Source: Candidatus Eiseniibacteriota bacterium
Lineage (GTDB): Bacteria > Eisenbacteria > RBG-16-71-46
Direction: 5' to 3'
NCBI GenBank assembly: GCA_041483195.1
Contig: JBGPFC010000019.1
Span: 2,853-66,852, forward strand
DNA: 64,000 bases
The notes beneath the pieces are model-generated. The model was not told where the DNA came from. It saw only the letters and a list, made by a program, of their open reading frames with translations, and ran no database searches. Made by a program: the position numbers and the translations under genes. The first letter of the stretch is position 1. Each line of letters opens with the position of its first letter. Below, piece after piece: positions 6,012 through 33,998 of this stretch.

Positions 6012-6785
6012 ATGAGATCCATGATTCGCGCCGCCGTACCGATGGTGCTGGGCGCCGGGCTGTTCGCGCTCCCGCTGTTCGCGAAGAACGCGGCGCCCCC
6101 GGACAGCGTCGAGCCGAAGCTCAATCCGCAGCAGGAACGGGGCGCGCGCGCGTTCCTCGCGTACTGCGCGTTGTGCCACGGCAACAACGGCTCGGGCGAT
6201 GGTCCGCTCGCGGCGCAGCTCGGCAAGCGGACCGGCGCGCCGCCGGTCCACCTCGACGATGCCTCGCGGATCGACCGGCTGGGACGCGCGGGGGTGCGCA
6301 CCGTGGTGACGCAGGGTGGGGGCCACACCGGGCGCTCCAACCTGATGCCGACGTGGGGGGAGCGCCTTTCGCCGGCCGTGGTGTCGGACATCGTCGAATA
6401 CGTGATGGTGCTGCCGCGGCTCAGCCCGTCGGTTCCACCGGCGACCGTCGCGAAGTATCTGAACGCCCCGCCCGGAAGCGCGCAGGCCGGGCGCGAGCAC
6501 TTCGTGCACTTCTGCTCGGGGTGCCACGGACCCCAGGGCCGCGGCGACGGATTCAACGCGGACTCGCTGTACGCGCGCAACCGCATCCGGCCGCGCAATC
6601 TCACGGACTCGACGTACTTCGCGCAGAAGACCGACGCGGTGCTCTACGAGACCATCGCGCTCGGCGGCGGACACATGGGGAAGTCGATGTACATGCCGGG
6701 CTGGACCTACCGCCTCTCGCCCGGGCAGATCAAGGATCTGGTGAGCTACGTGCGCGCCATCTCGCACACCGCCCCGCAGCCCTAG
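6012..6785 (+). CDS. periplasmic diheme c-type cytochrome (paralog of 25895-26650)
   Basis: Signal peptide MRSMIRAAVPMVLGAGLFALPLFA. Two CxxCH motifs (CALCH, CSGCH), each followed by a GGGHxG(R/K)S..MP.W motif. Clearly homologous to the product of 25895-26650. Confidence 0.8.
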   Translation: MRSMIRAAVPMVLGAGLFALPLFAKNAAPPDSVEPKLNPQQERGARAFLAYCALCHGNNGSGDGPLAAQLGKRTGAPPVHLDDASRIDRLGRAGVRTVVTQGGGHTGRSNLMPTWGERLSPAVVSDIVEYVMVLPRLSPSVPPATVAKYLNAPPGSAQAGREHFVHFCSGCHGPQGRGDGFNADSLYARNRIRPRNLTDSTYFAQKTDAVLYETIALGGGHMGKSMYMPGWTYRLSPGQIKDLVSYVRAISHTAPQP

Positions 6786-8209: not shown

Positions 8210-9133
8210 ATGAGACGAGTTCCGATTCTAGTCGTCGCCTTGTTCACGGTCTCGGCGCTTGTGTGGATGGGTGCGCGAGCGCCCGCGTCTTCGCAAGGCC
8301 CGGCGAAGTACGTGGGGGGCGAGACCTGCAAGAACTGTCACGAAGCCGAGTGGAACGCCTTCGAGAAATCGCCTCACGGCCGCGCCGAGGCGGACCAGAA
8401 GGTGGTCGCGGACGTCGTGGGCTGCGAGTCCTGTCACGGACCGGGCTCCGAGCACGCGGAGGCCGGCGGCGACAAGGACAGCCCCGGCTTCAAGACCATC
8501 CGCAATCTCAAGAGCATGGACGCCGAGGCCGCGAGCGAGGTCTGCGCCTCCTGCCACAAGACGGGCGAGCAGTTCTACTGGAAACAGAGCAACCACTCGC
8601 ACGCCGGCGTCGGCTGCCTGAACTGCCACAGCATCCATCATCCGCTGAACGTGGGCGCCGGGCCGATGCTGGTGTCCGCCGACGTGAATCACCTCTGCCT
8701 CACGTGCCACAAGGACAAGCGCGCCGCGCTCGCGCGCTCCGCGCACATGCCGCTGCGCGAGGGCAGCATGACCTGCGCGGACTGCCACAACCCGCACGGC
8801 TCGATGGGCCCGCACATGCTGCGCGCCGCGACCAACAACGAGCTCTGCTACAAGTGCCACGCCGACAAGCGCGGCCCGTTCCTGTGGGAGCACGCGCCGG
8901 TGCGCGAGAACTGCCTGAACTGCCACCAGCCGCACGGCTCGAACAACGACAAGGTGCTGTCGGGCAAGCGGCCGTACCTGTGCCAGCGCTGCCACATCGG
9001 CACGCGCCACCCGAGCACGCTGTACGACAACCCCGACCTCGTGGGGAACCGGTTGTTCAACCGGTCCTGCACCAACTGCCATTCGCAGATTCACGGGTCG
9101 AATCATCCCTCTGGCAAGTACTTCGAGCGATAG
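8210..9133 (+). CDS. mtrA: periplasmic decaheme c-type cytochrome, MtrA/DmsE/PioA/MtoA family
   Basis: RBS GGATGGAGG, signal peptide, and ten CxxCH motifs in 307 aa (CKNCH, CESCH, CASCH, CLNCH, CLTCH, CADCH, CYKCH, CLNCH, CQRCH, CTNCH). Family-typical C-terminus CTNCHSQIHGSNHPSGKYFER. Confidence 0.85.
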   Translation: MRRVPILVVALFTVSALVWMGARAPASSQGPAKYVGGETCKNCHEAEWNAFEKSPHGRAEADQKVVADVVGCESCHGPGSEHAEAGGDKDSPGFKTIRNLKSMDAEAASEVCASCHKTGEQFYWKQSNHSHAGVGCLNCHSIHHPLNVGAGPMLVSADVNHLCLTCHKDKRAALARSAHMPLREGSMTCADCHNPHGSMGPHMLRAATNNELCYKCHADKRGPFLWEHAPVRENCLNCHQPHGSNNDKVLSGKRPYLCQRCHIGTRHPSTLYDNPDLVGNRLFNRSCTNCHSQIHGSNHPSGKYFER

Positions 9134-9143: not shown

Positions 9144-11318
9144 ATGACGACGCTGAGATTTGCAGTCGCGATCGCGCTCGCGGGCGGCCTGGCCGTGAAC
9201 GCTCCCAGCTCCCCCGCGCGGGCCGCCGAAGGCGACGCCACGTTCGGAGGACAGTGGTGGAATCAGACCGCCCCCGACGCGAAGTACCAGGAGTTCCGGC
9301 AGGTGTCGCGCGGCGGCTTCCTCGAGAATTTCGTGATCCGCGAGTGGTCGGGCCGCACCAGCGTGGCGCTGTGGGGGGCGAACGCGCTCCACGGAGACCA
9401 GGCGGCGAAGCTCACCGTGGCGGACGGCGTTCGCTGGCGGGCGGACTTCGGCTACACCCAGATCCCTCACCAGTTCAGCTTCACGTCGCGCTCGCCATGG
9501 TCGCAGAGCTCGCCCGGGTCGTTCACGCTGCCGGACCTGATCCAGTCCGCCAACCAGACCACGCCGGCCAACTACTCGACGAACATGCGCGACGTGCTGG
9601 CCAACTCGCCGCTCATCGGGCTCGGTTTCGACACCGACATCTCGTCGGCCCGTCTCCGGGCGCGGCCCACGCGCGACTGGCAGCTCGATGCGCGAGGCAC
9701 GGTGCGCGAGCGCTCGGGTCAGAAGCCGTACGCCATGACGTTCGGGTTCAGCACCGCGATCGAGATCCCGGAGCCCATCGACCAGCGCATGGTCGACGCC
9801 GACGTCATCGCGAACTACCAGCACAAGGACATGACCGCGCAGGTGGACGTTGGCGTCTCCACGTTCACGAACCACATCAGCACGCTGCGCGTGGACAACC
9901 CGAAGCGCGCCACCGACGTGGTCGGCGGCGACGGGCCCCGGGTGGGAGCGCTCGACCTCTACCCCGACAACCAGGTGATTCGCGGCACGCTCGCGCTCGG
10001 CTATGAACTCCCGAAGCGCACGTCGGTGACCGCGACGGTCGGCATGAGCCAGGGCAAGCAGGACGACAAGTTCCTGCCGTACACCAACAATTCGGCGCTC
10101 GCCCAGAGCCGGATCGATTCGCTCCCGGTACGCAGCCTCGACGGCAAGGCGGTGCAGCTGAACGGAGACGTGCGGCTCTCGACCCGCCCGATCGAGGGGG
10201 TGGAGGGCGCGCTGCGCTTCCATTACACCGACTACGACAACCAGACCGAGGAGCACAATTTCAGCGGCCAGTCGCCATACGACGTCTCGTGGCAGCCGTA
10301 CGCCATCCACCCCAATCACGTGCTCAGCAACAAGCAGCTGGTGTCGGGCGGCGATCTCGACTACGCGGTGACGCCGCAGATCAAGCTCGGCGGGACGGTC
10401 GAGTACCGCACCCGCGACCGCACCGAGCGCGAGGTCGAGAAGGACAACGAGACCGTCTACGGCGGTCACGCGCGAATGCACCTGATGGACAACGTCCAGC
10501 TCCAGGGACGCTACACGCACGGCGACCGCAAGCTCGACGCTTTCAACAACGACGAGTACATGATCTACGTGGCGCGCACGCGCACCCCCGTCACCGGCAT
10601 CTACGACTCGCTGGTGCAGGGCGAGCAGACCGCGCTCCGGCGCTTCGACGTCGCGAACCGCGTGCAGGACATGGCGAGCGGCGGCGTGTCGTATGCGCTG
10701 GGCGAGCGCGCGGACCTGAGCGCGAGCTACGCCTACCTGAAGAACGACTACAAGGACTCGCAGTTCGGACTTCAGAAGGAGACTCAGCAGACCGTGGCCA
10801 CCGACGCGACGATTCACGTCAACGAGCGCCTGGACCTGAACGGCGGTTACGGCTACGGCGTGACCGAGACCAACCAGGCGTCGCGGGTGTCGAACGCCGC
10901 GACGCTCAGCACCCTGGCGAACAACAACTGGTTCGCGCTCTTGAAGGACACCGATGTCTTCTACTTCGCGGGCTTCGAGTGGACGCCGAAGGAGAAGCTC
11001 ACGCTGGTCGGCAACTACCAGCTGAGCCGCGACCTCTCTCTGTTCGATTTCACCGATCCGCTCAACACCTCGATCGACCTCCCGGGCACCATCTATCGCC
11101 GGCACGAGGCGCAGCTCGACGCGCGCTGGCAATGGATCAAGAGCACCGTGATCATCGGGCGCTGGGGCTGGGAGGAGTACGACTCGATCGACTGGGCCAC
11201 CAACAACGTGCCGTACGTCTTCCCGCTGGTGGGCGCCTCGACCGGCGTGTTCCTCGGCGACAGCTCGCAGGGGTACAAGGCGCATCGCCTGGCGCTGCTG
11301 GTGAAGCACAGCTTCTGA
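9144..11318 (+). CDS. mtrB: MtrB/PioB-family outer-membrane beta-barrel (decaheme-associated porin)
   Basis: Starts 10 nt after mtrA. Signal peptide ...SSPARAAEG. 724 aa with alternating beta-strand-like composition rich in Y/G/D/T/N, and a C-terminal aromatic residue (LLVKHSF). Its size and its position next to the MtrA homolog fit the family. Confidence 0.75.
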   Translation: MTTLRFAVAIALAGGLAVNAPSSPARAAEGDATFGGQWWNQTAPDAKYQEFRQVSRGGFLENFVIREWSGRTSVALWGANALHGDQAAKLTVADGVRWRADFGYTQIPHQFSFTSRSPWSQSSPGSFTLPDLIQSANQTTPANYSTNMRDVLANSPLIGLGFDTDISSARLRARPTRDWQLDARGTVRERSGQKPYAMTFGFSTAIEIPEPIDQRMVDADVIANYQHKDMTAQVDVGVSTFTNHISTLRVDNPKRATDVVGGDGPRVGALDLYPDNQVIRGTLALGYELPKRTSVTATVGMSQGKQDDKFLPYTNNSALAQSRIDSLPVRSLDGKAVQLNGDVRLSTRPIEGVEGALRFHYTDYDNQTEEHNFSGQSPYDVSWQPYAIHPNHVLSNKQLVSGGDLDYAVTPQIKLGGTVEYRTRDRTEREVEKDNETVYGGHARMHLMDNVQLQGRYTHGDRKLDAFNNDEYMIYVARTRTPVTGIYDSLVQGEQTALRRFDVANRVQDMASGGVSYALGERADLSASYAYLKNDYKDSQFGLQKETQQTVATDATIHVNERLDLNGGYGYGVTETNQASRVSNAATLSTLANNNWFALLKDTDVFYFAGFEWTPKEKLTLVGNYQLSRDLSLFDFTDPLNTSIDLPGTIYRRHEAQLDARWQWIKSTVIIGRWGWEEYDSIDWATNNVPYVFPLVGASTGVFLGDSSQGYKAHRLALLVKHSF

Positions 11319-11379: not shown

Positions 11380-11850
11380 ATGAGCGAACCCACCGCGACG
11401 ACGCCCGCGCCGGCGCAGGGAGCATCCCTGGGCCGGCGCACCTTTCTGACCCGGCTCAGCCAGGCGTTCCTGAGCCTGTGGGGGATCGGCACCGCGGCCG
11501 CGGTCGCCGCCTATCTGCGCGCCCCCGACCGCGGCGAGCGCATCGCCGAGCGCATCGTGCGGGTCGGCATGCTCGACGATCTTCCGGTGGGCGAGGCGCG
11601 ACTGGTGCCGCACGGCACGACGCCCTTCTACGTGGTGCGCATGGACGCGACGCGGCTGGTCGCGCTCTCGGCGGTGTGCACGCACGTGCGCTGCATCCTC
11701 AACTACGATCGCGAGCGCAAGGGCCTCGTGTGCCCATGCCACGACGGGCGCTTCGATCTCTCCGGAAACGTGCTCTCCGGCCCGCCCCCGCGCGCGTTGC
11801 CGTCGTACGAGGTCGCGGTGCGGGCTGGCGAAGTGTTCGTGCATCTATGA
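11380..11850 (+). CDS. Rieske [2Fe-2S] protein with a Tat signal (module A)
   Basis: Twin-arginine motif GRRTFLTRL. Cluster-binding boxes CTHVRC and CPCHDGRF. Confidence 0.85.
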   Translation: MSEPTATTPAPAQGASLGRRTFLTRLSQAFLSLWGIGTAAAVAAYLRAPDRGERIAERIVRVGMLDDLPVGEARLVPHGTTPFYVVRMDATRLVALSAVCTHVRCILNYDRERKGLVCPCHDGRFDLSGNVLSGPPPRALPSYEVAVRAGEVFVHL

Positions 11851-12980
11851 GCGGCGCACCGGACCGCGAACCACCCCGCACCGATCGCGGCGTCATCGGC
11901 TGGCTCGAGCGGCGCGTCAACCTCACCGAGATCTTCTCGTTCGTCTCGCACTTCGGCTTGGTCTTCACGCCGGTGGACAGCTCGCGGCCGCTGCGCGAGA
12001 CCCTGCGCGACGTCGCGCGCCAGCCGATCCCGGACTTCGCGCGCTGGCCGCGCGTGCTCGGGCTGCTCGCCGCGATCGGGTTCGGCATCGAGGCGCTCAC
12101 CGGCGTGCTGCTCGCGTTCTACTACCGCCCCACCCCCGACGCGGCGTTCGAGAGCACGCGCACCATCGTGCGCGACCTGCCGCTCGGCTGGTTCATCCAC
12201 CAGATGCACGCCTGGGGCGCGTGGCTGCTGGTCGCGATCGTGGTGGTGCGCATGCTGCGGCTGTTTTGGGACGGCCTCTACCGCGCGCCGCGCGAAGTGC
12301 TCTGGATGACGGCGGTCGGGCTCGCGTGGCTGGTGCTGCAGGCCGACTTCACGGGCCACCTGCTCACGTGGGACGCGCACTCGTACTGGTCGACGGTGCG
12401 CGGCATGGAGGTGGTGTTCGCGCTGCCGCTGGTCGGGCCGGTGCTCGCGTTCCTGCTCGGCGGCCGCGTCGTGAACGACGACGTGCTGATCCGCTTCTAC
12501 GTGCTGCACGTGATGGTGCTGCCGCTGGCCTACGCCGCGCTCATCTACCTCACGTTCGCGACCCTGCGCCGCGTGGGGCTGAGCCCGGCGCCCACCGCCG
12601 TGACCACCGGGACCAGCACCTTCCGCGATCATCTCTACTCGATGACGGTCGCGAACGTCCTGGTATTCGGCGTGCTCGTGTCGCTCGCGGTCCTGCTCCC
12701 GTTCCGCTTCCTCGCGGCGGCCGATCCCTACACGACCCCCGGCGGCGTGCGGCCGCCGTGGTACATGCTGGCGCCCTACGCCGTGCTGCGCATGGCGCCG
12801 GGGCCCGCCTGGCTGTGGGGCCTGCTGCTGGTGGCGATCGCGTTCGCGGTGCTGCTGCTTCCGTTCTGGACGCGCGCCGAAGACGAGCGCGCGCGGACCC
12901 GCATCCGCCTCGGAAGCCTCGCGGCTTTCGCGGCCTGGATCGCGCTCAGCATCGCGGCGCTGTTCCTGGATCGGAAATGA
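11847..12980 (+). CDS. cytochrome b (b6+subunit IV-type fusion), atypical: only one of the two bis-His heme-b ligand pairs is present (module A)
   Basis: ATGA overlap with the Rieske gene. Aligns to the paralog at 28054-29130 (WFIHQMHAWGAWLL vs [14 protein letters not shown]; RFYVLHVMVLP vs [11 protein letters not shown]). R135 (CGC 12249-12251) and T236 (ACG 12552-12554) sit where the second His of helices B and D is expected. The Qo motif reads PPWY rather than PEWY. Confidence 0.8.
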   Translation: MSGAPDREPPRTDRGVIGWLERRVNLTEIFSFVSHFGLVFTPVDSSRPLRETLRDVARQPIPDFARWPRVLGLLAAIGFGIEALTGVLLAFYYRPTPDAAFESTRTIVRDLPLGWFIHQMHAWGAWLLVAIVVVRMLRLFWDGLYRAPREVLWMTAVGLAWLVLQADFTGHLLTWDAHSYWSTVRGMEVVFALPLVGPVLAFLLGGRVVNDDVLIRFYVLHVMVLPLAYAALIYLTFATLRRVGLSPAPTAVTTGTSTFRDHLYSMTVANVLVFGVLVSLAVLLPFRFLAAADPYTTPGGVRPPWYMLAPYAVLRMAPGPAWLWGLLLVAIAFAVLLLPFWTRAEDERARTRIRLGSLAAFAAWIALSIAALFLDRK

Positions 12981-14230
12981 GCGCGAGCCCCGTGGCATTC
13001 GCGCGGCGGGTCGCGCTGGTCACCCTCGTGATCGCGCCGCTCGCCGCGCTCGTCGCGCGCTCGCAGCCGGGCGCGCCCGCGCCCTCCGCGAGCCCGCCCG
13101 GGAACGCCTCGGCGGCGGCCGGCAAGTGCGGCGTGTGTCATCCGTCCGAGCGCGTGCAGTTCGAGACCAGCCTCCACGCTCGCGAGCAGGTCCATTGCAC
13201 GGCGTGTCACGGCGGGAACGACGCGAGCCTCGAGATGTCGGTCGCGCATTCGAGCGGCTTCCGGGGCCGGCCCGCGCGCAAGGACGTCCCCGCGCTCTGC
13301 GCGTCGTGTCACGCGAACGAGGCGCGCATGCGCGCATACAACCTGCCGGTGGATCAGTACGCGCTCTACCAGACCTCGGGACACGGCAAGCGGCTCGCGG
13401 CCGGCGACACGCGCGTGGCGGTCTGCTCCGATTGCCACGGGGCGCACGCCATCCTCGCGCCGAGCGATCCCGGCAGCAGCACGTTCCCGACCAACATTCC
13501 GAAGACCTGCGGCCGCTGCCACGGCGATGCCAGGCTGATGCCCGCCGGGAAGGCGGTGTTCGCGGACTACTCGAAGAGCGTTCACGCCGCGGCGCTGCTC
13601 GACAAGGGCAACCTCAAGGCGCCGACCTGCGTGAGCTGTCACGGCGTGCACGGCGCCGCGCCCCCCGCGGTCGGCGACATCGACAAGGTGTGCGGCCAGT
13701 GCCACACCGCGGAGCGTCGCTACTTCACCGCCGGGGCGCATCGCCACCCCGGCTCGGGCGAGGGGCCGGAGTGCTCGTCGTGTCACGGGGCGCACGCCAT
13801 CGAGGCCGCCCGGCCGGAGCGCATCGCGACATCTTGCGCGGGCTGCCACGCGAAGGGATCGCCAGAGGCCGCGCTCGGCAGCCGCATGTGGACCGAGGTC
13901 CGGGGCGCGGCCGACGAGATCGACAAGGCGACCGCGATCGCCACCAGGGCCGACGCCGTCCCGATCAACACCGACGACTACCGCGCGCGGCTCGAGGAGG
14001 CCCGCACCTACCTGCGCGAGGCCATGCCCGCCGCGCACTCGGTCCAGGAAGAAGTGGTGGCGGGGCTCACGACGCGCGCGCGATCGGTCGCGCACGAGGT
14101 CGAGTCCGACATTCACGGCAAGCTCGGCAACCTCCACGTGCGGCGCTTCGTGCTCATCCTCTTCTGGTTCTACCTGCTGCTCACCATCCTGGTGCTGCGC
14201 CGATTCCAGAAGCGGGCGCCGAGGATCTGA
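12977..14230 (+). CDS. nonaheme c-type cytochrome with a C-terminal TM anchor (module A)
   Basis: ATGA overlap with the cytochrome b gene. Signal/anchor at the N-terminus. Nine CxxCH motifs, followed by a coiled-coil-like region and a terminal TM helix (FVLILFWFYLLLTILVL). Paralog of 26735-28057. Confidence 0.8.
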   Translation: MSASPVAFARRVALVTLVIAPLAALVARSQPGAPAPSASPPGNASAAAGKCGVCHPSERVQFETSLHAREQVHCTACHGGNDASLEMSVAHSSGFRGRPARKDVPALCASCHANEARMRAYNLPVDQYALYQTSGHGKRLAAGDTRVAVCSDCHGAHAILAPSDPGSSTFPTNIPKTCGRCHGDARLMPAGKAVFADYSKSVHAAALLDKGNLKAPTCVSCHGVHGAAPPAVGDIDKVCGQCHTAERRYFTAGAHRHPGSGEGPECSSCHGAHAIEAARPERIATSCAGCHAKGSPEAALGSRMWTEVRGAADEIDKATAIATRADAVPINTDDYRARLEEARTYLREAMPAAHSVQEEVVAGLTTRARSVAHEVESDIHGKLGNLHVRRFVLILFWFYLLLTILVLRRFQKRAPRI

Positions 14231-14231: not shown

Positions 14232-16040
14232 GTGGCCCGGCTCTCGGGGCTAGGGCCCGACTCGTCGATCGGCCGCTGGGTCGCTCGCGCGAGCTTAGGC
14301 CGCCTCACGCCGCGCGGCCTGCGCATCGCGAGCTTCAGCGCGGCGCTCGCCCTCGGGCTCGGCCTGGTGCTGGTCGTGTTCGCGGCGCAGATGTCGTCGA
14401 CCCCCACCTTCTGCGGCTCGTGCCACATCATGAAGCCATACTACGAGTCGTGGAAACACTCGAAGCACTCGCGCATCGCGTGCGTCGAGTGCCACATCGC
14501 GCCCGGTATCACCTCCGAGATCCGCAAGAAGTACGAGGCGCTGTCGATGGTGGCGAAGTACTTCACCGGAACCTACAGCACCAACCCCTGGGTCCAGGTG
14601 GACGACGCGGCCTGCCTGCGCTGCCACGAGCGGCGGCTGCTCGAGGGCAAGGAAGTCTTCCACAACGTGCTGTTCGACCACCGGCCGCACCTCACCGAGA
14701 GCCGGCGCGGACTCAAGCTGCGCTGCACCTCGTGCCATTCCCAGATCGTGCAGGGCAGTCACATCAGCGTGACCTCCTCGACCTGCGCGCTCTGCCACTT
14801 CAAGAACCAGCCGCTCAACACCGGCACCGGCCGCTGCCTGAACTGCCACCAGATTCCCGAGCGCGTGCTCACCACGGCCGGCACGACGTTCGACCACTCC
14901 GAGGTGCGACGGCTCGACATGGACTGTCGCTCCTGCCACGCCGGCGTGGTGCGCGGCGATGGAACCGTGCCGCGCGAGCGCTGCGTGACCTGCCACAACC
15001 AGGCCGACCGCCTCGCGCGCTTCGGCGACCGGGATTTCCTGCACCGGATGCACGTCTCCGAGCACAAGGTGAACTGCATGAACTGCCACCTCGAGATCCA
15101 GCACGGCAAGGCGGAGCACCCGATGGTGGCGTCGGCCGCCGGCTGCGAGTCGTGTCACGGCGGCGGCCACTCGCCGCAGCGCGACCTCTACGCGGGCGTC
15201 GGCGGCCGCGGCGTGCCCCGCATGCCCGGGCCGATGTTCGCGGCGGGCGTGAGCTGCGAGGGCTGCCACAATCCGTCGGTGTCGGTCGCGGCATCGAACG
15301 ACCCGTTCGCCGAGCGCACGCAGAAGGCGAGCGAGGTGTCGTGCATGAGCTGCCACGGCCCCGGCTACCGCCAGATCTTCTTCGCGTGGAAGGAGGCGGT
15401 GCGCTCGCGCCTCGCCGCGATGCGCGCGCAGCTGGCGGCGAGCGCCGGTGCGATGGGCGCGAACGCGCCGGCCGCGTGGCGGGACGCGCAGTACAACGTG
15501 GCGCTGGTGGATCGCGGGAAGGGCGTGCACAACGTGAACTACGCGTACGCGCTGCTCGAGAAGGCCCACGAGCAGATGAACGAGGCGCGGCGCGCGCGCG
15601 GGCTCGCTGCGCTGTCGCTCCCGTGGACCACGGTCGCGGCCGGATCGGCCGCCGCCAACTGTCTCGGGTGCCACGCCGGGATCGAGCGCCAGGCGGGCAC
15701 GTTCGCGGGGCGCGCCTACGCGCACGCGCCGCATCTGGCCGCGAAGCTCGACTGCTCGACCTGCCATCGCCCGCACCAGGAGCGCGCGCCCGGCGAGATC
15801 GTGAAGTTCGGCGCGAACGGCTGCGTGCCATGCCATCATCCGACCGCCGCGGTGGAGGCGCCGAAGTGCATGGCGTGCCACGGCGACGTCACAGCGCGCA
15901 CCGTGACCAGCTTCCGCGGCGAGTTCTCGCACAAGGGCCACCTCGAGCAGGGGCTCGAGTGCGGAACCTGCCATCAGCCGAAGAACGGCGACCCGCGGCC
16001 CGCGAAGGAAACCTGCGCGCAGTGCCACGAGGGCGGGTGA
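14232..16040 (+). CDS. 18-heme c-type cytochrome with an N-terminal NapC/NirT/CymA-like membrane-anchored quinol-dehydrogenase module
   Basis: GTG start 1 nt after the previous stop. TM helix, then FCGSCHIMKPYYESWKHSKHSRIACVECH (NapC/NirT signature). Eighteen CxxCH motifs counted in 602 aa. Confidence 0.8.
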   Translation: MARLSGLGPDSSIGRWVARASLGRLTPRGLRIASFSAALALGLGLVLVVFAAQMSSTPTFCGSCHIMKPYYESWKHSKHSRIACVECHIAPGITSEIRKKYEALSMVAKYFTGTYSTNPWVQVDDAACLRCHERRLLEGKEVFHNVLFDHRPHLTESRRGLKLRCTSCHSQIVQGSHISVTSSTCALCHFKNQPLNTGTGRCLNCHQIPERVLTTAGTTFDHSEVRRLDMDCRSCHAGVVRGDGTVPRERCVTCHNQADRLARFGDRDFLHRMHVSEHKVNCMNCHLEIQHGKAEHPMVASAAGCESCHGGGHSPQRDLYAGVGGRGVPRMPGPMFAAGVSCEGCHNPSVSVAASNDPFAERTQKASEVSCMSCHGPGYRQIFFAWKEAVRSRLAAMRAQLAASAGAMGANAPAAWRDAQYNVALVDRGKGVHNVNYAYALLEKAHEQMNEARRARGLAALSLPWTTVAAGSAAANCLGCHAGIERQAGTFAGRAYAHAPHLAAKLDCSTCHRPHQERAPGEIVKFGANGCVPCHHPTAAVEAPKCMACHGDVTARTVTSFRGEFSHKGHLEQGLECGTCHQPKNGDPRPAKETCAQCHEGG

Positions 16041-18551
16041 TTCGGCGTATCTACTACGTTTCCTCTTCGCGCGCTCGACCACCCCGCTCATGGCGCTGCG
16101 ACACGTACTTGCGTGAGAATACATCGAGTCGCTTGCCCAGCGCGTCATCGGTGTAATCATACCTGTCGACGTTTCGCTGTTTCCGCAGGCACCGCACAAG
16201 AAAGCTCACCGGCAAGACAAGAATCATCTTCGTATGCTCCACCCACGTAGTTCGCACCCAGCCTCGATCAGATTCATCGAGCCCCTCGAGCTCGCTGCGC
16301 GTAATAAGCACACCGAATCTGCCGTACGCGCCGGTTAGGTAACTCGCAATCTGCCTAAAGTCGGCCGGCTCCAGCTTCTGAAAGTTCTTCACCTCGAACA
16401 CAACCTGCCGAGAACCATAGTCCTCAAATACTCGCCGCCAGAATCCCCTCTCCGCTGAGTTTGTTGCCACAATGTCGCGTCTTTGGGTGGCATCTGCGTT
16501 CGGCTTCAGCTCCGGATTCGCCAAGGAGCCAGCGAAGAGGATTCTGATAGCTCTGAATACCCACGCCTCAAAATCGGTGCTTCCCGCTTGCCCGAGGGGG
16601 AGCTTTGGAACCTGGGCCACCAACTGCCCCAATTGTCTAGTCCGAAGGTCTTTCAGCTCCGACACCGGCGCGGCGTTTTCGTCATCGTGCACATCGGTGA
16701 GAATTCCAGGAGCTGGTTCGTTCGCGAGAACATCAAGTGCCAGCCAGTAGCATGGATGAATGGCAGTCCTTCTTTCGGCATCGCGCGTATCCAAGGCCGA
16801 AGGAGCTCCGTCATGGCAAAAGCTAAATCTGCCGGCCGCGACATCCTCGAGTCCTATGAAACCAATCCCGTGAAGCGCCGACAAGAGATCATGCCCGCCT
16901 CCGAAGATCGCAAAGTCGCTCGCCCCCCTCTGGCTGTAGTCATCATTGCGTGCGACCGCATCCAAGTAATCCGTTCGTTGCGCAACCGTTGCAAACGCTT
17001 GCGCGCCATGGAACGAGCGGAGAACAAGCTCTATCCCGGGAAAGACGGCGTCGTACTCCTTGATGAGATCGCTTAGGCGATCCCGAGATATCTGGGTCGC
17101 GGTCGCCTCGACATCCGCTTCTACCAGCGCGGTCCGCCCGGATCTCGCCGCAGCGACAAACGCTTGATTGAGGAGAACCAAGACGTCACGCGGTCGGAGA
17201 AGGGTCTGCTGAAGGCACCTCGCAAATCCTTCACGATCTTGGAGCCCGCGTTGGGCGAATCGATTCCAGACTTTGATGTCGTTTTGGGTCGACTCTAAGC
17301 GAAGCGCGACACGAAGCCGATTCGCCACAAGATGTAGGAGGCTGCCCTCGTCCCATCTGAGGCGAAGGGTGTTGCCCTCTATGTGGCGGGAGTAGTCCAT
17401 GTCTAGGTGAGCAAGCGCGCGGAATATATTGTCCCGCATGAAGAGAATGCCGTGGATTTCGCTCTTTCGGTCCACGAAGTCCGCCATCGCCAATGCAAGG
17501 CCTCCCAAGATCGCTGTTGATTGTTGGTCGGGAGCCCAGCCCTCATCGAGCCCGTCGAACAAGAACAATGCCGGCTTGCCGGAGTCGCGGAGCACCTCAT
17601 CCACCGACTCCTGGACGTCGCCGAGGCGAAGGTTGCTGGCTACGAGGCCCGGCACTTCATGGACGTCACTTCCCTGCGCGCGGGCGCGGCCCAGGATTTC
17701 CACGCAACGCCCTATGCCGCCGAGTTTCAGAAGGGATCGGTGCTCGTTGGCATAGCCCCTCAGGAACGCTGCGCTGCTGCTCCTGTCCAATTTCCAATAC
17801 TTCAGGACACCTTCCAACACTTTGAAGAGCAGGTGCGCACGCCACGTCACGCGCATCATGGCTCGAGTGCTCTTGTAATTCCCTTCAAAGCGTCGGATCG
17901 TGCTCTGAAGCGAGAGCATTTCGTTTTCTTCTGGGTGTGAGTCGAACAGGAACCGATCGTCTCTCCGCTGAAAATGCTCGGTGATCTTCATGTACAGAGC
18001 CGTCTTGCCGGAACCGCGGCGGCCCACCACAAAATTGAAGTCGGGTGTCCCGGTCAGGGCACGAAAATCCGGCGTCTCGACAAATGCCTGGGACAGCATC
18101 ATGCCGTCGGCCTCGGCTCTACTCGCGCCGAGGATGTTTCCGAAAAGCCCCGCGACGTTGTCTGCTCTGCGCGGTAGAGTATCGGGCGTGTCCACGGATC
18201 TGAAGCTAGCACACGAAGGTGCGCGCGCGGAGACCCTATGGCTATGCCGCCTATACAGCCGCCGCCCTGCCGCATCGGCAGGGCGACAGTTCAGGCGTGA
18301 TGACTGCAGCCAGGATGGGGGGGGCAAGACTTCGAAACGCGTCTTTGCGTTGGCGGCCATCACTCGGGTAGGAGCGCCCTGCAGCGTGGCGACGCCCCGT
18401 GGAAGGCACCCGCCCAGATTGACCGGTCCGTTACCTGTACCCGAAGATCGGATGATAGCGGGCTTCCACCCGGGGGCGATCGGATCGAGTTCTTCGACCG
18501 CGTCGACACCTGCGCCGAGAATATCCTGAGAGAGATGGCGAGGTTCACACG
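16041..18551. other. low-GC (~55% vs ~70% flanks) genomic islet carrying one gene
   Basis: Hand counts on several 60-nt lines inside the region give about 55% GC. Composition changes abruptly right after the stop of the 18-heme gene (16040) and recovers before the LysE gene (18552). No integrase, tRNA or direct repeats were seen. Confidence 0.6.
16054..18102 (-). CDS. P-loop (STAND/ORC-like AAA+) ATPase fused to a C-terminal Mrr-like PD-(D/E)xK nuclease domain; candidate stand-alone defence protein
   Basis: Walker A is VVGRRGSGKTALY and Walker B is ALFLFDGLDEGW, followed by the sensor-like strand ILFMRDN and LLRPRDVLVLLNQA. The C-terminus DFEAWVFRAIRILF...RRDIVATN...QVVFEVKNFQ...RFGVLITRS fits a D...ExK restriction-endonuclease core. 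The ORF is open up to 18363 (GTG), but the Arg-rich upstream part looks non-coding, and the ATG at 18102 has GAGG 11 nt upstream. Confidence 0.7.
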   Translation of the reverse strand: MMLSQAFVETPDFRALTGTPDFNFVVGRRGSGKTALYMKITEHFQRRDDRFLFDSHPEENEMLSLQSTIRRFEGNYKSTRAMMRVTWRAHLLFKVLEGVLKYWKLDRSSSAAFLRGYANEHRSLLKLGGIGRCVEILGRARAQGSDVHEVPGLVASNLRLGDVQESVDEVLRDSGKPALFLFDGLDEGWAPDQQSTAILGGLALAMADFVDRKSEIHGILFMRDNIFRALAHLDMDYSRHIEGNTLRLRWDEGSLLHLVANRLRVALRLESTQNDIKVWNRFAQRGLQDREGFARCLQQTLLRPRDVLVLLNQAFVAAARSGRTALVEADVEATATQISRDRLSDLIKEYDAVFPGIELVLRSFHGAQAFATVAQRTDYLDAVARNDDYSQRGASDFAIFGGGHDLLSALHGIGFIGLEDVAAGRFSFCHDGAPSALDTRDAERRTAIHPCYWLALDVLANEPAPGILTDVHDDENAAPVSELKDLRTRQLGQLVAQVPKLPLGQAGSTDFEAWVFRAIRILFAGSLANPELKPNADATQRRDIVATNSAERGFWRRVFEDYGSRQVVFEVKNFQKLEPADFRQIASYLTGAYGRFGVLITRSELEGLDESDRGWVRTTWVEHTKMILVLPVSFLVRCLRKQRNVDRYDYTDDALGKRLDVFSRKYVSQRHERGGRAREEET

Positions 18552-19661: not shown

Positions 19662-22508
19662 CTAGCGGTACCCGAACACCGCGGCGTAGAGGATCAGCAG
19701 GATCAGCAGGATCCCGAGCGTGAGCGCGGCCGCTCCGAACACCTTCCACAGCAGCAGCGTGCGCGGATCGGGCGGCTCGACCATCCGCTCCTGCAGCTCG
19801 CCGCTCGCCATCATCTCCTCGTACTCGCGCGGGCGATCCTTCTTGTACTCCTCGAGCGGCACGATGCCGGTGAAGATCACGGTGTCCATCGGGAACTTCT
19901 CGGGGCGGAAGTGGGTGTTGAAGAAGTGCACGGTGAAGATGAATCCCACCGCCAGCAGCGCCTCGTCGCTGTGCACGATGGTCGCGACGTTCAGCAGCCA
20001 GCCCGGCAGCAGCCGCGTGAAGAACGTGGGGAACCAGAGCATGAGCCCGGTGGCGCCGATGATGGCGACGCCCCAGAAGACCGCGAAGTAGTCGAACTTC
20101 TCCCAGTAGGTCCAGCGGCCGTAGGCGGGGCGGGACCCGCGCCCGGCGAACCACTTGACGGACTGGATGAATTCCTTGAGATCGGTGAGCCCGGGGAGCA
20201 TCCCGTTCGGCCCGGCGATGAACGCCAGCCACGACCGCCCGCTCGCGCGCTTGCGCCTCGCCATGTCCCACAGGTGAATGCCGAAGTAGCTGAACGTGAT
20301 CACCGCGCACACGCGATGAATGAAGCCCGCCGCCTCGAAGCCTCCGAGCACGCGCGACAGCGCCCACGCCCAGCCTGTGTACGAGAACTTGAGCGTCATG
20401 CCGGTGATCGCGAGCCCGAGAAAGCTCACCATCACCATGACGTGGAGGTTGCGGTAGAGCTTGGGAAACCGCCGCAGGTACACGCCGGACGCGCCGACGT
20501 GCTCGCGCTTGAGCTCGGCGCGGTAGCGCAGCGAGCGCGGCAGCCATGCGAAGGTGTGCAGGCCGGCGAACGCGAAGGTGCCGATCAGGAGCCCGGTCAT
20601 TCCCCAGAAGGTCCAGAACAGCGCGGGGTATTTCTTCGGATCGTGGTGCGTCGCGTGCGTGAGGTAGCCCGCGAACCGCCGGTTCGATCCGGGATGGCAC
20701 TGCCCGCAGGTCTTCACGATGTTCTGCCGCGAGAGGTGCGATTTCGGATTGAAGATCGCCTGGATGTCGTGTGCGCCATGGCAGTCGTAGCACTTCGCGG
20801 TCTTGAGATAGCCCAGCTTCGACACCTTGCCGTGGTAGGTCTCGAAGTAGCTCTCGGCGAGCGCGCGATGGCAGCGCCCGCACTGGGTCATGATGTTGAG
20901 CCGGAAGTTCTCCTTGTCGGTCCGCCCGATCTGGTGCGCGCTGTGGCAGTCGGAGCAGGTCGGCAGCGGCTGCTTCGTGTGCGAAACGTTCGGCGAGTGG
21001 ATGCTGGAGCTGAACAGTTCGTAGATGCCGCGATGGCACCGGGCGCAGGTGGTCGCGATGTTCGCGGGGTTCACGCTGGACTGCGGATTCTCGTGCGGCA
21101 GCTCGCCGTGCGAGGTGTGGCAATCCACGCAGGTCGCGGTGACGACCAGCCCGCTCTCGAGCAGGCCCTTGCCGTGAATGCTCTCGACGTAGCTCTCGAC
21201 GATCAGGCGTTCCGTGCCGCGGTAGCGCACGGCGGCCTTGTTCCCGGTGCGGTGGCAGCGGCCGCACAGCTCTGGAACGTTCTTCGCGTAGGTCGGCGAG
21301 TCGGACTCGAGGTGGCCCTGCATCCCGTGCGTGCCGTGGCAGTCGGCGCACATCGGTGCATCCGGGCTCTCCTTCGCCGCCAGCTGGCCGTGGGTGCTCG
21401 AGCGATAGGTGTTCACCACCTCGGCGTGGCAGATCGAACAGTCCACCTTGCCGGTGATGGTGCGGCACGGCCGCAGCTCGGAGGGATTGCCGCCGGTGTG
21501 ACACTGCGCGCACGCGACGCGGGCGTGCCGCGAGTGGGCGAGCGAGTCGGCGTTCACGGTCATCGACGCCCCGCTCGCCGCGCGCAGGTCGCGCTTCGCG
21601 TGGCAGGACAGGCAGTCCTTGTCGGCCATGCCCTGGGTGTAGAACACCCGCCGCGCCTTGTGCGGCGAGTGGCAGTCCACGCAAGCCGGGATCAGGTTGG
21701 GCTGCTTCTCCCACAGCTCGCCGCGAACCACCTTGCGGTGCACGACCTCGATGCGCACGTGGCACTGCGTGCAAGTCTTCGCGACGTTGCGGTGCGCGAT
21801 CGAGGAGCGCGGGTCGGTGTGCGGGAGCACGAAGTGCGCGGTGTGGCAGCTGGTGCACACCGCGGTGGTGAGCAGGCCCTTCTTGTAGAGACCCTCGCCG
21901 TGGATCGACTCGGAGTAGTTGGCGAGGATGCTGTCCTGCGGGATGTGATACGTGATCTGGACCGGCGAACCCTCGTGATGGCAACGGCCGCAAAGCATCG
22001 GCACGTTGAACTTGTTCACCGGGGAAGCGAGATCGGAAGGCCTCAGCACGTCGTGCGTGCCATGGCACGCCTTGCAGCTCGGCGCGAGCTTCTCGCCGCG
22101 CTGTGCCGCGAGGCCGTGAATGCTCTCGTGGTACTGGATCTGCTCGGCCCCGTGACACTGGCCGCAATCGACCGGCTTCGGCTTCGGGTGCGGGAAGTCC
22201 TGGTTCGCTAGATCGGCGTGGCAGGCGGCGCACTCGATCCCGGCATGCGGCGAGGCGCGCAGCGCGGCAGCGTCGTAGTTCGGAGGCTCGTCCGGCCCGC
22301 GATGCGCGGCCGGCACGCCGCCCTGGTGGCACATCGCGCACGGTTCGGAGCCCGGGAGCTGCGCGGCGGCTGGCGCGTTCTTCTGCGCGGCGCCCGCCGC
22401 GGGGAGGGTCGCGGCGCCCTGCGCGTGTGCGCTCGCGGGCGCGCTCACGCGCGACCCCATCACCACGAACGCGAGCAGGGCCATGACGAGCGTCGCCCGC
22501 TGCGACAT
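19662..22508 (-). CDS. CbcL-like fusion: 19-heme periplasmic c-type cytochrome domain plus C-terminal HydC/FdnI-type membrane cytochrome b domain
   Basis: Signal peptide MSQRATLVMALLAFVVMG (ATG at 22508; the ORF is open to 22544). Nineteen CxxCH motifs counted. The C-terminal ~330 aa contain 5-6 TM helices with conserved His (GLHTFAW, NLHVMVM, FIHRVCAV, IVHSDEALLAVGFIFTVHFFNTHF). Confidence 0.8.
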   Translation of the reverse strand: MSQRATLVMALLAFVVMGSRVSAPASAHAQGAATLPAAGAAQKNAPAAAQLPGSEPCAMCHQGGVPAAHRGPDEPPNYDAAALRASPHAGIECAACHADLANQDFPHPKPKPVDCGQCHGAEQIQYHESIHGLAAQRGEKLAPSCKACHGTHDVLRPSDLASPVNKFNVPMLCGRCHHEGSPVQITYHIPQDSILANYSESIHGEGLYKKGLLTTAVCTSCHTAHFVLPHTDPRSSIAHRNVAKTCTQCHVRIEVVHRKVVRGELWEKQPNLIPACVDCHSPHKARRVFYTQGMADKDCLSCHAKRDLRAASGASMTVNADSLAHSRHARVACAQCHTGGNPSELRPCRTITGKVDCSICHAEVVNTYRSSTHGQLAAKESPDAPMCADCHGTHGMQGHLESDSPTYAKNVPELCGRCHRTGNKAAVRYRGTERLIVESYVESIHGKGLLESGLVVTATCVDCHTSHGELPHENPQSSVNPANIATTCARCHRGIYELFSSSIHSPNVSHTKQPLPTCSDCHSAHQIGRTDKENFRLNIMTQCGRCHRALAESYFETYHGKVSKLGYLKTAKCYDCHGAHDIQAIFNPKSHLSRQNIVKTCGQCHPGSNRRFAGYLTHATHHDPKKYPALFWTFWGMTGLLIGTFAFAGLHTFAWLPRSLRYRAELKREHVGASGVYLRRFPKLYRNLHVMVMVSFLGLAITGMTLKFSYTGWAWALSRVLGGFEAAGFIHRVCAVITFSYFGIHLWDMARRKRASGRSWLAFIAGPNGMLPGLTDLKEFIQSVKWFAGRGSRPAYGRWTYWEKFDYFAVFWGVAIIGATGLMLWFPTFFTRLLPGWLLNVATIVHSDEALLAVGFIFTVHFFNTHFRPEKFPMDTVIFTGIVPLEEYKKDRPREYEEMMASGELQERMVEPPDPRTLLLWKVFGAAALTLGILLILLILYAAVFGYR

Positions 22509-22654
22509 GCTCGTCACGACCCCGCCGATGCCATCGCGCGCCACAGCCCACCCGCTCTCGCGCGGCGTGGCCTGTTCCGCGCACTCCGACCCGCGGCGCC
22601 GCGGCCCGCGGGCGATGAGCGGGGCCGCGCGGCGCGCGGTCCCGCGTTATGTCC

Positions 22655-23332
22655 CTACTTGGTCGGCGCCGCCACCGCCACGACGTGCGTGCCCTTGGCC
22701 TTGTACTCGTCGAACTTGAAGTTCGGGCTCGTAACCGGCGTATGGCACTGCATGCACATGTTCGCGGTCGGATGACCGTAGATGAACTTCTTCTTGTCCG
22801 CCGCAGCCGCCGGCACGTGCAGGCTTCCCGGTCCGTGGCACCCTTCGCAGGTCATGTTGCTCACGCCCGCGTTCTTGGTGCTGTCCGCCGCCGGATATCC
22901 GCCCGCCAGGTGAAACGCGGTCACGTGGCACGTGACGCAGGCTTCGTTGTCCGCGGGATTGCCCTTCAGCTCGACCTTGAGCTTCGCGGCCATCTCGGCG
23001 ACCGCCTTGGGATCGGCCTTGCGAAGATTCTCGAGCGCGTGCGCGTGATTGGTCTCCGAAAACGCCTTGTACTGTTTGAAGTGGCACATCTTGCACTTGT
23101 TGACGCCCAGGTACTCGGCAGCCTTCGCATCGCTCGCGGCCGGCGCCTTCTGGTCCGTCTTGTACGTCTTGCCCGCTGCGCTGAGATCCGCACCGCCCGC
23201 GGGGTTCACGTGACAGGTCGCGCACGCCGCCTTGGTCTGGCGCGCAAATTCGGGGAACGCCCACGCATGGACCGCCAGCATCGCGACCAGGCCCGCCGCG
23301 AGCAGACCGACCACCACACTCCGTACTCGCAT
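22655..23332 (-). CDS. periplasmic pentaheme c-type cytochrome
   Basis: Signal peptide MRVRSVVVGLLAAGLVAMLAVHAWA. Five CxxCH motifs (CATCH, CKMCH, CVTCH, CEGCH, CMQCH). First gene of the minus-strand unit that continues into 19662-22508. Confidence 0.8.
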   Translation of the reverse strand: MRVRSVVVGLLAAGLVAMLAVHAWAFPEFARQTKAACATCHVNPAGGADLSAAGKTYKTDQKAPAASDAKAAEYLGVNKCKMCHFKQYKAFSETNHAHALENLRKADPKAVAEMAAKLKVELKGNPADNEACVTCHVTAFHLAGGYPAADSTKNAGVSNMTCEGCHGPGSLHVPAAAADKKKFIYGHPTANMCMQCHTPVTSPNFKFDEYKAKGTHVVAVAAPTK

Positions 23333-23661: not shown

Positions 23662-23702
23662 GTTGGTTGGAGCACAGCAGCGCTGGTGCGAGGGCATCCT
23701 GC

Positions 23703-25898: not shown

Positions 25899-26650
25899 CG
25901 ACCTGTCGCGCGCTGTTCGCGGGGACCCTCGCGATCGCCATGCTGTCCCTGATTTCCGCCTGCCAGACCACGCCGCGGCCGTGGGCGTCGCCGGAATCGC
26001 TTCAGAAGGGCCAGCAGGCGTTCCTCTCGTACTGCGCGATGTGTCACGGCGACGGGGGCGACGGCGACGGCGAGCTCGCCTCCACGCTCCAGCAATCCGG
26101 CGTGGTGGTCGCGCGGCTCAGCAGCGCGGCGAGCATGCAGAAGCTCGGATACCTGGGCGTGCGCAAGGTGATCGTTCAGGGCGGCGCGCACACCGGTCGT
26201 TCGAACATCATGCCCGCCTGGGGCGAGCGCTTGCCAGACGACCTCATCAGCGCCATCGCGGCCTACGTGATGACGCTCTCCGACAAGACGCCGGCCATTC
26301 CGGAGGCCACGGTGCGGAAGTACCTCGCGGCGCCGGCCGGCGTTCCGGACGAAGGCCGCCGCGTGTTCGTGCACTACTGCGCGGCGTGTCACGGCCCGTT
26401 CGGTCGCGGCGACGGCACCTACGCCGAGGCGCTGCGCGTGCAGCACAACATCCGCCCGCGCGATCTCACCGACTCGACCTACCTCGCGCAGAAGACCGAC
26501 GAGCAGCTGTTCGCGACCATCTCGCTGGGCGGGGCGCACGTCGGAAAGTCGAACTTCATGCCGGCCTGGTCAGTGTCGCTCAGCCCCGAGCAGATCAAGA
26601 GCCTCGCCAGCTACATCCGCGAGATCTCGCGCACCTCGCCGCGGCCCTGA
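25895..26650 (+). CDS. periplasmic (lipoprotein-like) diheme c-type cytochrome, paralog of 6012-6785
   Basis: ATGA overlap with the preceding gene. Leader ...MLSLISAC. Two CxxCH motifs (CAMCH, CAACH) with the same GGAHxG(R/K)SN.MPAW motifs as the paralog. Confidence 0.8.
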   Translation: MTTCRALFAGTLAIAMLSLISACQTTPRPWASPESLQKGQQAFLSYCAMCHGDGGDGDGELASTLQQSGVVVARLSSAASMQKLGYLGVRKVIVQGGAHTGRSNIMPAWGERLPDDLISAIAAYVMTLSDKTPAIPEATVRKYLAAPAGVPDEGRRVFVHYCAACHGPFGRGDGTYAEALRVQHNIRPRDLTDSTYLAQKTDEQLFATISLGGAHVGKSNFMPAWSVSLSPEQIKSLASYIREISRTSPRP

Positions 26651-33270: not shown

Positions 33271-33298
33271 TTGACTGACTTCCTGGCATCGCGAGAAT
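33271..33298 (+). promoter_or_regulatory. candidate sigma70-type promoter for the cytochrome c-nosZ unit (TTGACT-N16-GAGAAT)
   Basis: Read directly. Lies about 200 nt upstream of the cytochrome c start and is embedded in the TGTCAG...GGTTGACTGAC element. Confidence 0.3.
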
Positions 33299-33981: not shown

Positions 33982-33998
33982 TCGAAGGAGGAGGGGCC

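Follow-up and report, generated by a model that had tools for sequence, protein, structure and literature searches.

The 64,000-nucleotide stretch of DNA analysed here, referred to as the window, comes from a Candidatus Eiseniibacteriota bacterium (assembly GCA_041483195.1, contig JBGPFC010000019.1, positions 2,853 to 66,852 of the forward strand). It encodes a Rieske/cytochrome b unit, module A, whose cytochrome b lacks both histidine ligands of heme bH/bn on the negative (N) side of the membrane and retains both ligands of heme bL/bp on the positive (P) side. This protein belongs to a widespread, selectively maintained clade that lacks N-side heme ligands and yet keeps the Rieske protein and the machinery of the quinol oxidation (Qo) site. 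Our favoured reading, held with a confidence slightly above even and derived from sequence comparison, is that module A would function as a quinol:multiheme-cytochrome oxidoreductase without a transmembrane chain of b hemes and without a quinone (Q) cycle.

The central gene of the unit is the following.
11847-12980, forward strand: cytochrome b of module A, with ATG at 11847, TGA at 12978-12980 and 377 amino acids.

The protein is of the seven-helix type in which b6 and subunit IV are fused. It is matched by PF00033 with 116.6 bits (Pfam threshold 27.2) and by PF00032, the C-terminal/subunit IV domain, with 39 bits (threshold 20.7). An AlphaFold2 model (predicted local distance difference test score 84, predicted template modelling score 0.80) reached a Foldseek TM-score of about 0.70 to bc1 cytochrome b structures. 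The best NCBIfam match was ExtP (NF040969), the cytochrome b of the Geobacter selenite/tellurite operon, of which the protein is not a member (155.5 bits, cutoff 290), and the score to the b6-type family NF002990 was likewise below the cutoff (139 versus 325 bits). The cysteine of heme cn/ci (b6 Cys35) was not found by alignment; its position is occupied by Val70 in module A and by Trp in a canonical paralogous unit of the window, module B. The guanine-plus-cytosine (GC) content of the window is about 70%, and its nearest relatives are metagenome-assembled genomes labelled Candidatus Eisenbacteria.

The heme ligands were mapped by phmmer alignment to the solved cytochrome b6 chains 6rqf_I and 7r0w_I, which is ungapped over helix B. 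In addition, residue columns were compared between 44 members of the clade, 113 canonical sequences, and relatives with histidine at both bH positions (His/His relatives) that were reached through mhc2, the last gene of the unit. The four positions are as follows.
12207-12209, forward strand: His121, retained helix-B ligand of P-side heme bL/bp; falls on b6 H86 and is 100% conserved in the clade and in canonical relatives.
12507-12509, forward strand: His221, retained helix-D ligand of heme bL/bp; falls on b6 H187 and is 100% conserved.
12249-12251, forward strand: Arg135 (CGC) at the helix-B ligand site of heme bH/bn; falls on b6 H100.
12552-12554, forward strand: Thr236 (ACG) at the helix-D ligand site of heme bH/bn; falls on b6 H202.

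Thus, of the four histidines that are usually regarded as invariant, a helix-B pair spaced by 14 residues and a helix-D pair, only H121 and H221 are present. The missing residues are assigned to the bH/bn pair on the basis of the b6 alignment and of the yeast numbering, in which H96 and H197 ligate heme bH (PMC4122944). An earlier first-pass annotation of this DNA, which had aligned the two cytochromes b by eye, proved accurate on these points. Its module A peptides MHAWGAWLLVAIVVVR, LHVMVLPLAYAALIYLT and RPPWYM are encoded on the forward strand, and its helix-B and helix-D peptides of module B, together with RPEWYF, on the reverse strand at 28054-29130; the two Qo motifs, RPPWYM in module A and RPEWYF in module B, thus lie where it had placed them. 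The codons of R135 and T236 are as it had read them, and that of the neighbouring L235 is CTC. Its statement that both lost ligands belong to a single N-side heme is borne out by the phmmer alignment, and the profile-type comparison with b6 structures that it had called for places R135 and T236 at the bH positions and keeps both bL ligands.

The protein contains seven histidines in total (35, 118, 121, 171, 178, 221 and 262), none of which lies in the N-side half of helices A to D as a substitute ligand. H118, H171 and H178, which the same annotation had named as residues that might occupy the bH ligand positions after all, were rejected, as all three are on the P side: H118 is one turn ahead of the bL ligand, and H171 adjoins the bL-side Gly170. 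Among the 120 best homologues (64-100% identity) out of 5.8 billion clustered sequences, neither H171 nor H178 is conserved, position 171 being Arg in 104 of 120 and position 178 His in 79 and Arg in 37. A ligand swap to the N-terminal His35 was rejected as a general explanation, since six clade members have no His at either 35 or 236 (L017, L018, L020, L024, P0123 and P0131), three of which (L018, L020 and L024) also lack one at 262. A His-ligated N-side heme can therefore not be a property of the whole clade. For Eisenbacteria specifically, where His35 covaries with Thr236, the swap may still apply.

Conservation argues that the substitutions are products of neither chance nor decay. Among the 120 homologues, R135 is found in all and T236 in 118, with Ser in the other two; H121, H221 and H118 are each present in 120 of 120 and PPWY in 117. 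Canonical relatives have His at the two bH columns in 113 of 113 and 112 of 113 sequences, whereas Arg135 is present in 44 of 44 clade members. In a set of 79 genome loci, the 34 most similar ones all encode Arg at the helix-B position and the remaining 45 are His/His. Besides some mislabelled bins, the Arg loci belong to Eisenbacteria, Acidobacteriota (Blastocatellia, Polarisedimenticolia and Terriglobales), Latescibacterota, Aminicenantes and Gemmatimonadota. When 1.84 billion representatives were searched exhaustively with HMMER, Arg was found here in about 20 clusters formed at 50% identity. In a neighbour-joining tree the Arg clade is monophyletic, with the His/His lineage P0135 as its sister.

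The helix-D position is far more variable within the clade: Eisenbacteria have Thr, L018, L020 and P0131 have Asn, and Gly, Ser and Gln are found in L024, P0123 and P0149, respectively, while many deep lineages have kept His. Judged from this distribution, the helix-B ligand was lost once at the base of the clade, and the helix-D histidine then independently at least four to five times. The first-pass annotation had described the loss as concerted rather than random decay. The second half of this statement holds, because Arg135 is invariant in the 120 homologues and in the whole multi-phylum clade. The first half has to be replaced by a stepwise scheme in which Arg is ancestral to the clade and the helix-D histidine was lost later and repeatedly. 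The survey of mtrAB-adjacent orthologues that it had proposed likewise showed that the substitutions are conserved among orthologues, without exception in those next to mtrAB (L002, L004, L007 and L016).

More than 150 orthologues have an uninterrupted reading frame. Compared with the closest genome locus, the ratio of nonsynonymous to synonymous substitution rates (dN/dS) is 0.40 for the module A cytochrome b; the canonical paralogue gives 0.20 and the remaining genes of the operon 0.25-0.46. These values are rough, since a high GC content at third codon positions compresses dS. A ratio below 1 but twice that of the paralogue indicates purifying selection with some relaxation and faster evolution. 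Two further lineages with altered bH positions were noted. In L082 (P0160), the two positions are Phe and Leu, and PPWY, an upstream Rieske gene and a downstream nonaheme cytochrome gene are present. In L085 (P0174), both bH ligands are also replaced by Phe/Leu in a protein with PEWY, an orphan cytochrome b encoded beside a CoA-ligase gene, with no Rieske gene nearby.

At every clade locus that extends far enough, the genes for the Rieske protein, cytochrome b and two multiheme cytochromes c, mhc1 and mhc2, are found in fixed order, so that the first-pass proposal of a cytochrome b tied to a multiheme chain agrees with its constant co-occurrence with these genes. The partners encoded in the window are listed here.
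11380-11850, forward strand: Rieske protein of module A; PF00355, a twin-arginine translocation (Tat)-type RRTFL signal and the motifs CTHVRC...CPCHDGRF.
12977-14230, forward strand: mhc1, a nonaheme cytochrome c; nine CxxCH motifs, a signal peptide and a C-terminal hydrophobic helix as membrane anchor.
14232-16040, forward strand: mhc2, an 18-heme cytochrome c; 18 CxxCH motifs, an N-terminal membrane helix and a NapC/NirT/NrfH-like domain.

The stop codon of the Rieske gene and the start codon of the cytochrome b gene overlap as ATGA, and the same overlap is found at the junction of cytochrome b and mhc1, which is the arrangement of translational coupling. Rieske cluster ligands and disulfide cysteines are kept in 33 of 33 clade orthologues, which carry Phe where high-potential Rieske proteins have the potential-raising Tyr. 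The heme spacing of mhc1 matches that of the nonaheme protein of module B. PF03264 matches mhc2 with 46.6 bits (threshold 24.1), whereas the NrfH equivalog TIGR03153 reaches 58.6 bits with a cutoff of 134; mhc2 is therefore assigned to the NapC/NirT/NrfH group at the family level only. Residues 27-97 of mhc2 align to NrfH 2j7a_C, and its first-heme motif CxxCHxM (CGSCHIM) is invariant in 36 orthologues. The N-terminus (14232-14560) is near-identical across phyla, with the pattern FCGSCH(I/V)M(K/E)PYY...ACVECHIPPG...RKKYEALSMV...DDAxCLxCH. Conserved genes of unknown function 3' of mhc2 were looked for and none were found.

A reverse survey from mhc2 in metagenome contigs covered 41 loci with enough upstream sequence, of which 31 have a cytochrome b gene upstream and ten have no cytochrome b at all. 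Where mhc2 is at least 53% identical to that of the window, the upstream cytochrome b always carries Arg135; more distant ones are His/His. The idea that the 18-heme subunit was gained when the bH ligands were lost was rejected, because the operon, 18-heme subunit included, also occurs with both bH histidines in P0135/L083 and in many metagenome loci (L126-L160). Furthermore, 18-heme homologues of 36-51% identity at L120, L123, L143-L148, L158, L161 and L165 are preceded by neither a cytochrome b gene nor a Rieske gene in the 6 kb upstream, and the mhc2 family thus also exists outside Rieske/cytochrome b operons and can exist alone. Since mhc2 predates the heme loss and can stand alone, it cannot simply be a replacement exit for bL electrons.

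Comparison of the residue columns separates changes that track Arg135 from changes that are older. The positions concerned are given below.
12312-12314, forward strand: Ala156, at the position of the bH-side heme-packing glycine in helix C.
12546-12548, forward strand: Tyr234, an aromatic residue two positions ahead of the lost helix-D ligand.
12753-12764, forward strand: PPWY, the Qo motif (canonical PEWY).
12198-12200, forward strand: His118, in place of the canonical Arg one turn before the bL ligand.

Three changes co-occur strictly with Arg135. At position 156, 99% of canonical sequences and all His/His relatives have Gly, and the clade has Ala in 52%, Gly in 41% and occasionally Met, while the bL-side glycines G86 and G170 are 100% conserved there. 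Position 234 is Tyr, Phe or Trp in 100% of the clade and Gly, Ala, Val, Met or Leu in canonical sequences and His/His relatives. Finally, the charged residues R109, D110, R185 and E188 of the P-side loops are invariant in the clade and arose together with the loss of the heme ligands. These changes would fit a heme pocket that has been filled in or rebuilt, together with a remodelled P-side surface.

Other features are not consequences of heme loss, because they are present in sister lineages that keep both bH ligands. This applies to the 18-heme subunit, to PPWY, which belongs to the accepted variants of the Qo loop (PDWY, PVWY, APWY and PPWY besides PEWY) and lacks the glutamate, and to His118, found in 80% of the clade where 89% of canonical sequences have Arg. 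His118, the loss of Tyr171 and the proline of PPWY are common to the clade and to the His/His sister group L126-L134. The arginine displaced from position 118 appears to have been relocated: where 118 is His, an invariant Arg is found on the cd helix, which is residue 185 (12399-12401) for the heme-loss clade and residue 188 for the sister group. An N-terminal insertion (residues 31-49) was considered as a plug of the vacated pocket, and this idea was weakened by similar insertions in the His/His relatives L139-L159.

Several observations weigh against a cytochrome b reduced to a single heme, and they are best considered together with the explanation that they favour, namely that the N-side pocket still is a redox site of an electrogenic, modified Q cycle. 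Either a quinone in the vacated pocket, lined by Arg135, Arg138, Arg241 and the polar residue 236, or an unconventionally ligated heme, using His236 in deep members of the clade and His35/His262 in Eisenbacteria, would then serve as electron acceptor. The N-side face appears to remain constrained and to keep a function, because R138, P148-R149-E150, W153, R241 and G244 are, like Arg135 itself, invariant in the clade; at 100% they exceed their conservation in canonical proteins. R241 is, by alignment to b6, the equivalent of b6 Arg207, a neighbour of the quinone reduction (Qi) site and of heme cn (the Qi-site residue that follows the helix-D ligand in bc1 is His201), and the helix-A packing glycine G72 is kept. 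About half of the deep lineages of the clade have retained the helix-D histidine, which suggests some residual role there, and in almost all cases the residue at 236 can form hydrogen bonds (H, T, N, S or Q). In Eisenbacteria, a conserved N-side His35 accompanies Thr236, and the likewise N-side His262 is conserved as well. Moreover, the 18-heme subunit, PPWY and His118 also accompany cytochromes b with both bH ligands.

On the other side stand the clade members named above that have no histidine at 35, 236 and 262 (L018, L020 and L024) or at 35 and 236 (L017, P0123 and P0131), the relaxed packing glycine at 156 and the aromatic residue at 234. To our knowledge, arginine has not been found as an axial heme ligand, and we know of no precedent for quinone reduction straight from heme bL. 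The Qi site itself also appears altered. Of the Lys/Asp pair that opens helix E (bovine K227/D228), canonical sequences have R/K at the first position in 78% and D/E at the second in 80%; in module A the pair is replaced by Ser265/Met266, and the clade has Leu, Met or Ile at the Asp position in 98%, with the alignment of the de loop being uncertain by one residue. The hydrophobic residue at the Asp position speaks against a quinone-reducing N-side pocket. As the alignment based on mhc2 indicates that the Asp is apparently missing in His/His relatives too, its loss is not specific to the clade, and for the single-heme reading it can count as supportive only. Taken together, an active N-side redox site appears quite unlikely to us.

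In the favoured reading, module A would comprise four subunits: the Rieske protein, cytochrome b and two membrane-anchored cytochromes c, one with nine hemes and a C-terminal anchor, the other with 18 hemes, an N-terminal anchor and an NrfH-like domain. Cytochrome b would bind heme bL only and, because of this, electrons would have no route across the membrane, and both a canonical Qi site and a Q cycle would be absent; the corresponding statement of the first-pass annotation appears to be a reasonable inference. The Qo-side machinery is kept, with the Rieske cluster ligands and both bL ligands in place. Quinol would be oxidised at the P side with the release of scalar protons only, and both electrons would be passed to periplasmic multiheme cytochromes and, in the organism studied here, onward to the MtrAB conduit encoded in the same operon.

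Two routes may be envisaged for the second, low-potential electron. That heme bL passes it to the 18-heme subunit's membrane-proximal, NrfH-type heme is a speculative and rather doubtful proposition. Alternatively, the electron might pass through the Rieske centre in a semiquinone-mediated bypass of the kind described for the Chlamydomonas QiKO mutant. An extended version, which we regard as unlikely, envisages a bifurcating quinol oxidase with two wires, in which the Rieske protein would feed the nonaheme subunit at high potential and heme bL the NrfH-like heme of the 18-heme subunit at low potential. Such quinone-based bifurcation would yield a low-potential periplasmic or extracellular reductant, which might for instance act through MtrAB on Fe(III) minerals that are hard to reduce, while the high-potential branch could supply the cbb3 oxidase or the N2O reductase encoded in the window. 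If the Q cycle has been given up, the proton yield would be halved, and the enzyme could run on a small driving force and unopposed by the membrane potential. Operation without a Q cycle would suit extracellular acceptors of low potential. The same reasoning implies that the complex would probably be unable to use the proton-motive force to drive electrons from Fe(II) uphill to quinone.

The loss of the Qo glutamate and of the Qo-site Tyr171, together with a dN/dS twice that of the canonical paralogue, could also be read as signs that this copy of cytochrome b is degenerating or non-redox, would serve the multiheme subunits as a scaffold and would leave quinol oxidation to the NrfH-like 18-heme subunit. 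The homologues of mhc2 at L120 and L123, which are encoded without cytochrome b, indicate that the NrfH-like protein can stand alone, and its N-terminal domain is far more conserved than the accompanying cytochrome b. Nevertheless, we consider a scaffold highly improbable. Across phyla, conservation is 100% for the bL ligands, for G86 and G170 and for the cluster and disulfide cysteines of the Rieske protein, the frame is intact in all those orthologues, and the genes for Rieske protein and cytochrome b are translationally coupled. In addition, PPWY is also the motif of the active bc1 complex of Acidithiobacillus ferrooxidans (PMC4122944).

A different solution for the second electron would be a physical association with module B, the canonical paralogous unit of the window.
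26735-29558, reverse strand: module B, consisting of Rieske protein, cytochrome b and nonaheme cytochrome c.
29127-29558, reverse strand: Rieske protein of module B.
28054-29130, reverse strand: cytochrome b of module B, with four His ligands and PEWY.
26735-28057, reverse strand: nonaheme cytochrome c of module B.

In such a heterodimer or supercomplex, electrons from heme bL of module A would pass to heme bL, heme bH and the Qi site of module B, and the module A half would be specialised for output to the multiheme cytochromes and MtrAB. In 14 of 35 loci, module B is found no more than 10 kb from module A, directly downstream and on the same strand in Blastocatellia-type loci, and both modules contain a homologous nonaheme subunit. 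Electron transfer between the bL hemes of the two monomers is established in bc1 (PMC4330944). Yet Rieske and nonaheme genes are present separately in each module, identity between the two cytochromes b is only about 30%, and the long contigs L003, L013, L014, L029, L033 and L034 contain module A with no module B within 10 kb. We therefore judge such pairing to be very improbable.

With canonical bc1 and b6f complexes, including module B, module A shares the cytochrome b fold, the bL ligands and bL-side packing glycines, the P-x-W-Y loop, an adjacent Tat-exported Rieske protein with its disulfide and a membrane-anchored c-type cytochrome encoded downstream. It differs by Arg/Thr in place of the bH ligands, Pro in place of the Qo glutamate, the replacement of Tyr171 and Arg118 and the apparent absence of the Qi Lys/Asp pair. 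In contrast to the monoheme cytochrome c1 or cytochrome f, two subunits with 27 c-type hemes are encoded. The N-terminus of mhc2 resembles NrfH, NapC and CymA in its NrfH-like membrane helix and CxxCHxM first heme, but mhc2 has 18 hemes and is joined to a Rieske/cytochrome b operon.

Natural cytochromes b with incomplete N-side ligands have been reported before. Kao and Hunte (2014), in the largest Qo-motif survey of the family, listed PPWY for Acidithiobacillus ferrooxidans and described Pyrobaculum proteins without the fourth His (PMC4122944). In the cyanobacterial subfamily K of Dibrova et al. (2017), the helix-2 His is replaced by Glu/Gln and the packing Gly is lost (PMC5600118). Both cases resemble module A in a lineage-wide loss of N-side ligands, which the authors read as possible heme loss. 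Module A differs in its phyla, its invariant Arg, the loss of both ligands and its conserved operon of a Rieske protein and two large multiheme cytochromes, and the difference in taxa and substitutions suggests an independent origin. The Qo-motif survey also removed cytochromes b with one or more of the four histidines missing, on the ground that heme loss would break the Q cycle (PMC4122944), and bH-deficient variants have therefore been systematically overlooked.

A functional precedent is provided by the Chlamydomonas QiKO b6f complex, in which hemes bH and ci are absent but the Qo site still works and growth is sustained (Malnoe et al., 2011; PMC3112540). This precedent shows that a broken Q cycle is viable. 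The mutant is engineered and needs a protease mutation to accumulate, while module A is natural, distributed over several phyla and under purifying selection. The anammox Rieske/cytochrome b complexes (Kuste4569-4574 and Kustd1480-1485) contain hexa- and octaheme cytochromes, and a use of the low-potential electron outside the Q cycle has been proposed for them (PMC12954380). They share with module A a b6-like core and multiheme cytochromes c that replace cytochrome f. However, their low-potential branch is thought to run via the b hemes to an N-side NAD(P) reductase, whereas module A has no N-side heme ligands and encodes no cytoplasmic partner. Full-text literature searches did not reveal a description of the Arg135 clade. 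The known precedents do not match its combination of an invariant Arg, the loss of both ligands in Eisenbacteria and the presence of a nonaheme and an NrfH-like 18-heme subunit.

If module A is active, the Q cycle would not be obligatory for natural Rieske/cytochrome b enzymes, and the clade would offer a natural system for asking what becomes of the second electron after quinol oxidation at the Qo site. It would also represent a new type of inner-membrane entry to extracellular electron transfer in uncultured soil and groundwater phyla, such as Eisenbacteria, Acidobacteriota, Latescibacterota and Gemmatimonadota.

The operon of module A in the window begins with two genes for a porin-cytochrome conduit.
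8210-9133, forward strand: decaheme cytochrome c of the MtrA/DmsE family, first gene of the operon here; ten CxxCH motifs, TIGR03508 271 bits (cutoff 192).
9144-11318, forward strand: outer-membrane porin of the MtrB/PioB type; PF11854 280 bits.

The porin scores slightly below the cutoff of TIGR03509 (216 versus 240 bits), and a DmsE/MtrA-type decaheme gene beside an MtrB/PioB-type beta-barrel gene is the arrangement of an MtrAB/PioAB conduit. No MtrC gene is adjacent to the MtrAB genes of the window. The porin stop codon and the Rieske start codon are separated by 61 nucleotides. A strong MtrAB match near module A was found in six of 35 loci (the window, L002, L004, L007, L013 and L016); MtrAB was therefore rejected as a constant partner of module A and is a variable neighbour.

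The remainder of the window contains further redox proteins. At 23667-25898 (forward strand), a 13-heme cytochrome c is fused to a membrane cytochrome b of the b561/FdnI type, an architecture like that of CbcL in Geobacter. In at least 11 loci spread over several phyla, a CbcL-like homologue of 40-70% identity is encoded next to module A, so that this protein belongs with modules A and B to a conserved neighbourhood. Compared with the Cbc-type (CbcL) and ExtP systems of Geobacter, the window holds module B, the CbcL-like protein and mhc2 as several alternative inner-membrane entries to extracellular electron transfer. A 960-amino acid protein encoded at 19662-22544 (reverse strand) has 19 CxxCH motifs, MtrC/MtrF domain matches and hydrophobic C-terminal segments, and its homologues, with 72-75% identity, are encoded near module A in L003, L007, L009 and L012-L014. 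Its gene is adjoined by one for a five-heme, c554-like protein (22655-23332, reverse strand).

The genes nosZ and nosD are found at 33297-38004, and a cbb3-type oxidase cluster, with fused ccoN-ccoO followed by ccoG and a ccoI-type P-type ATPase gene, at 42471-50623. A sigma-54 two-component system is also among the genes between and around modules A and B. The window is thus a large respiratory island in which genes for extracellular electron transfer are combined with high-potential terminal reductases. Directly after mhc2, an open reading frame of 769 amino acids (16054-18363, reverse strand) has a local GC content of about 58%, compared with about 70% for the window, a weak match to the ATPase domain AAA_16 and weak PADLOC candidates (PDC-M36A, 54.7 bits); it looks like a horizontally acquired insertion in the cytochrome island. 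Paralogous diheme class-I cytochromes c of the Cytochrome_CBB3 type are encoded at about 6012-6782 and at 26003-26647 (both forward strand), one of them directly beside module B. On the 143-kb contig L080, a diheme cytochrome c gene is found upstream of module A in the place of MtrAB, and the two paralogues of the window are 64% and 57% identical to it.

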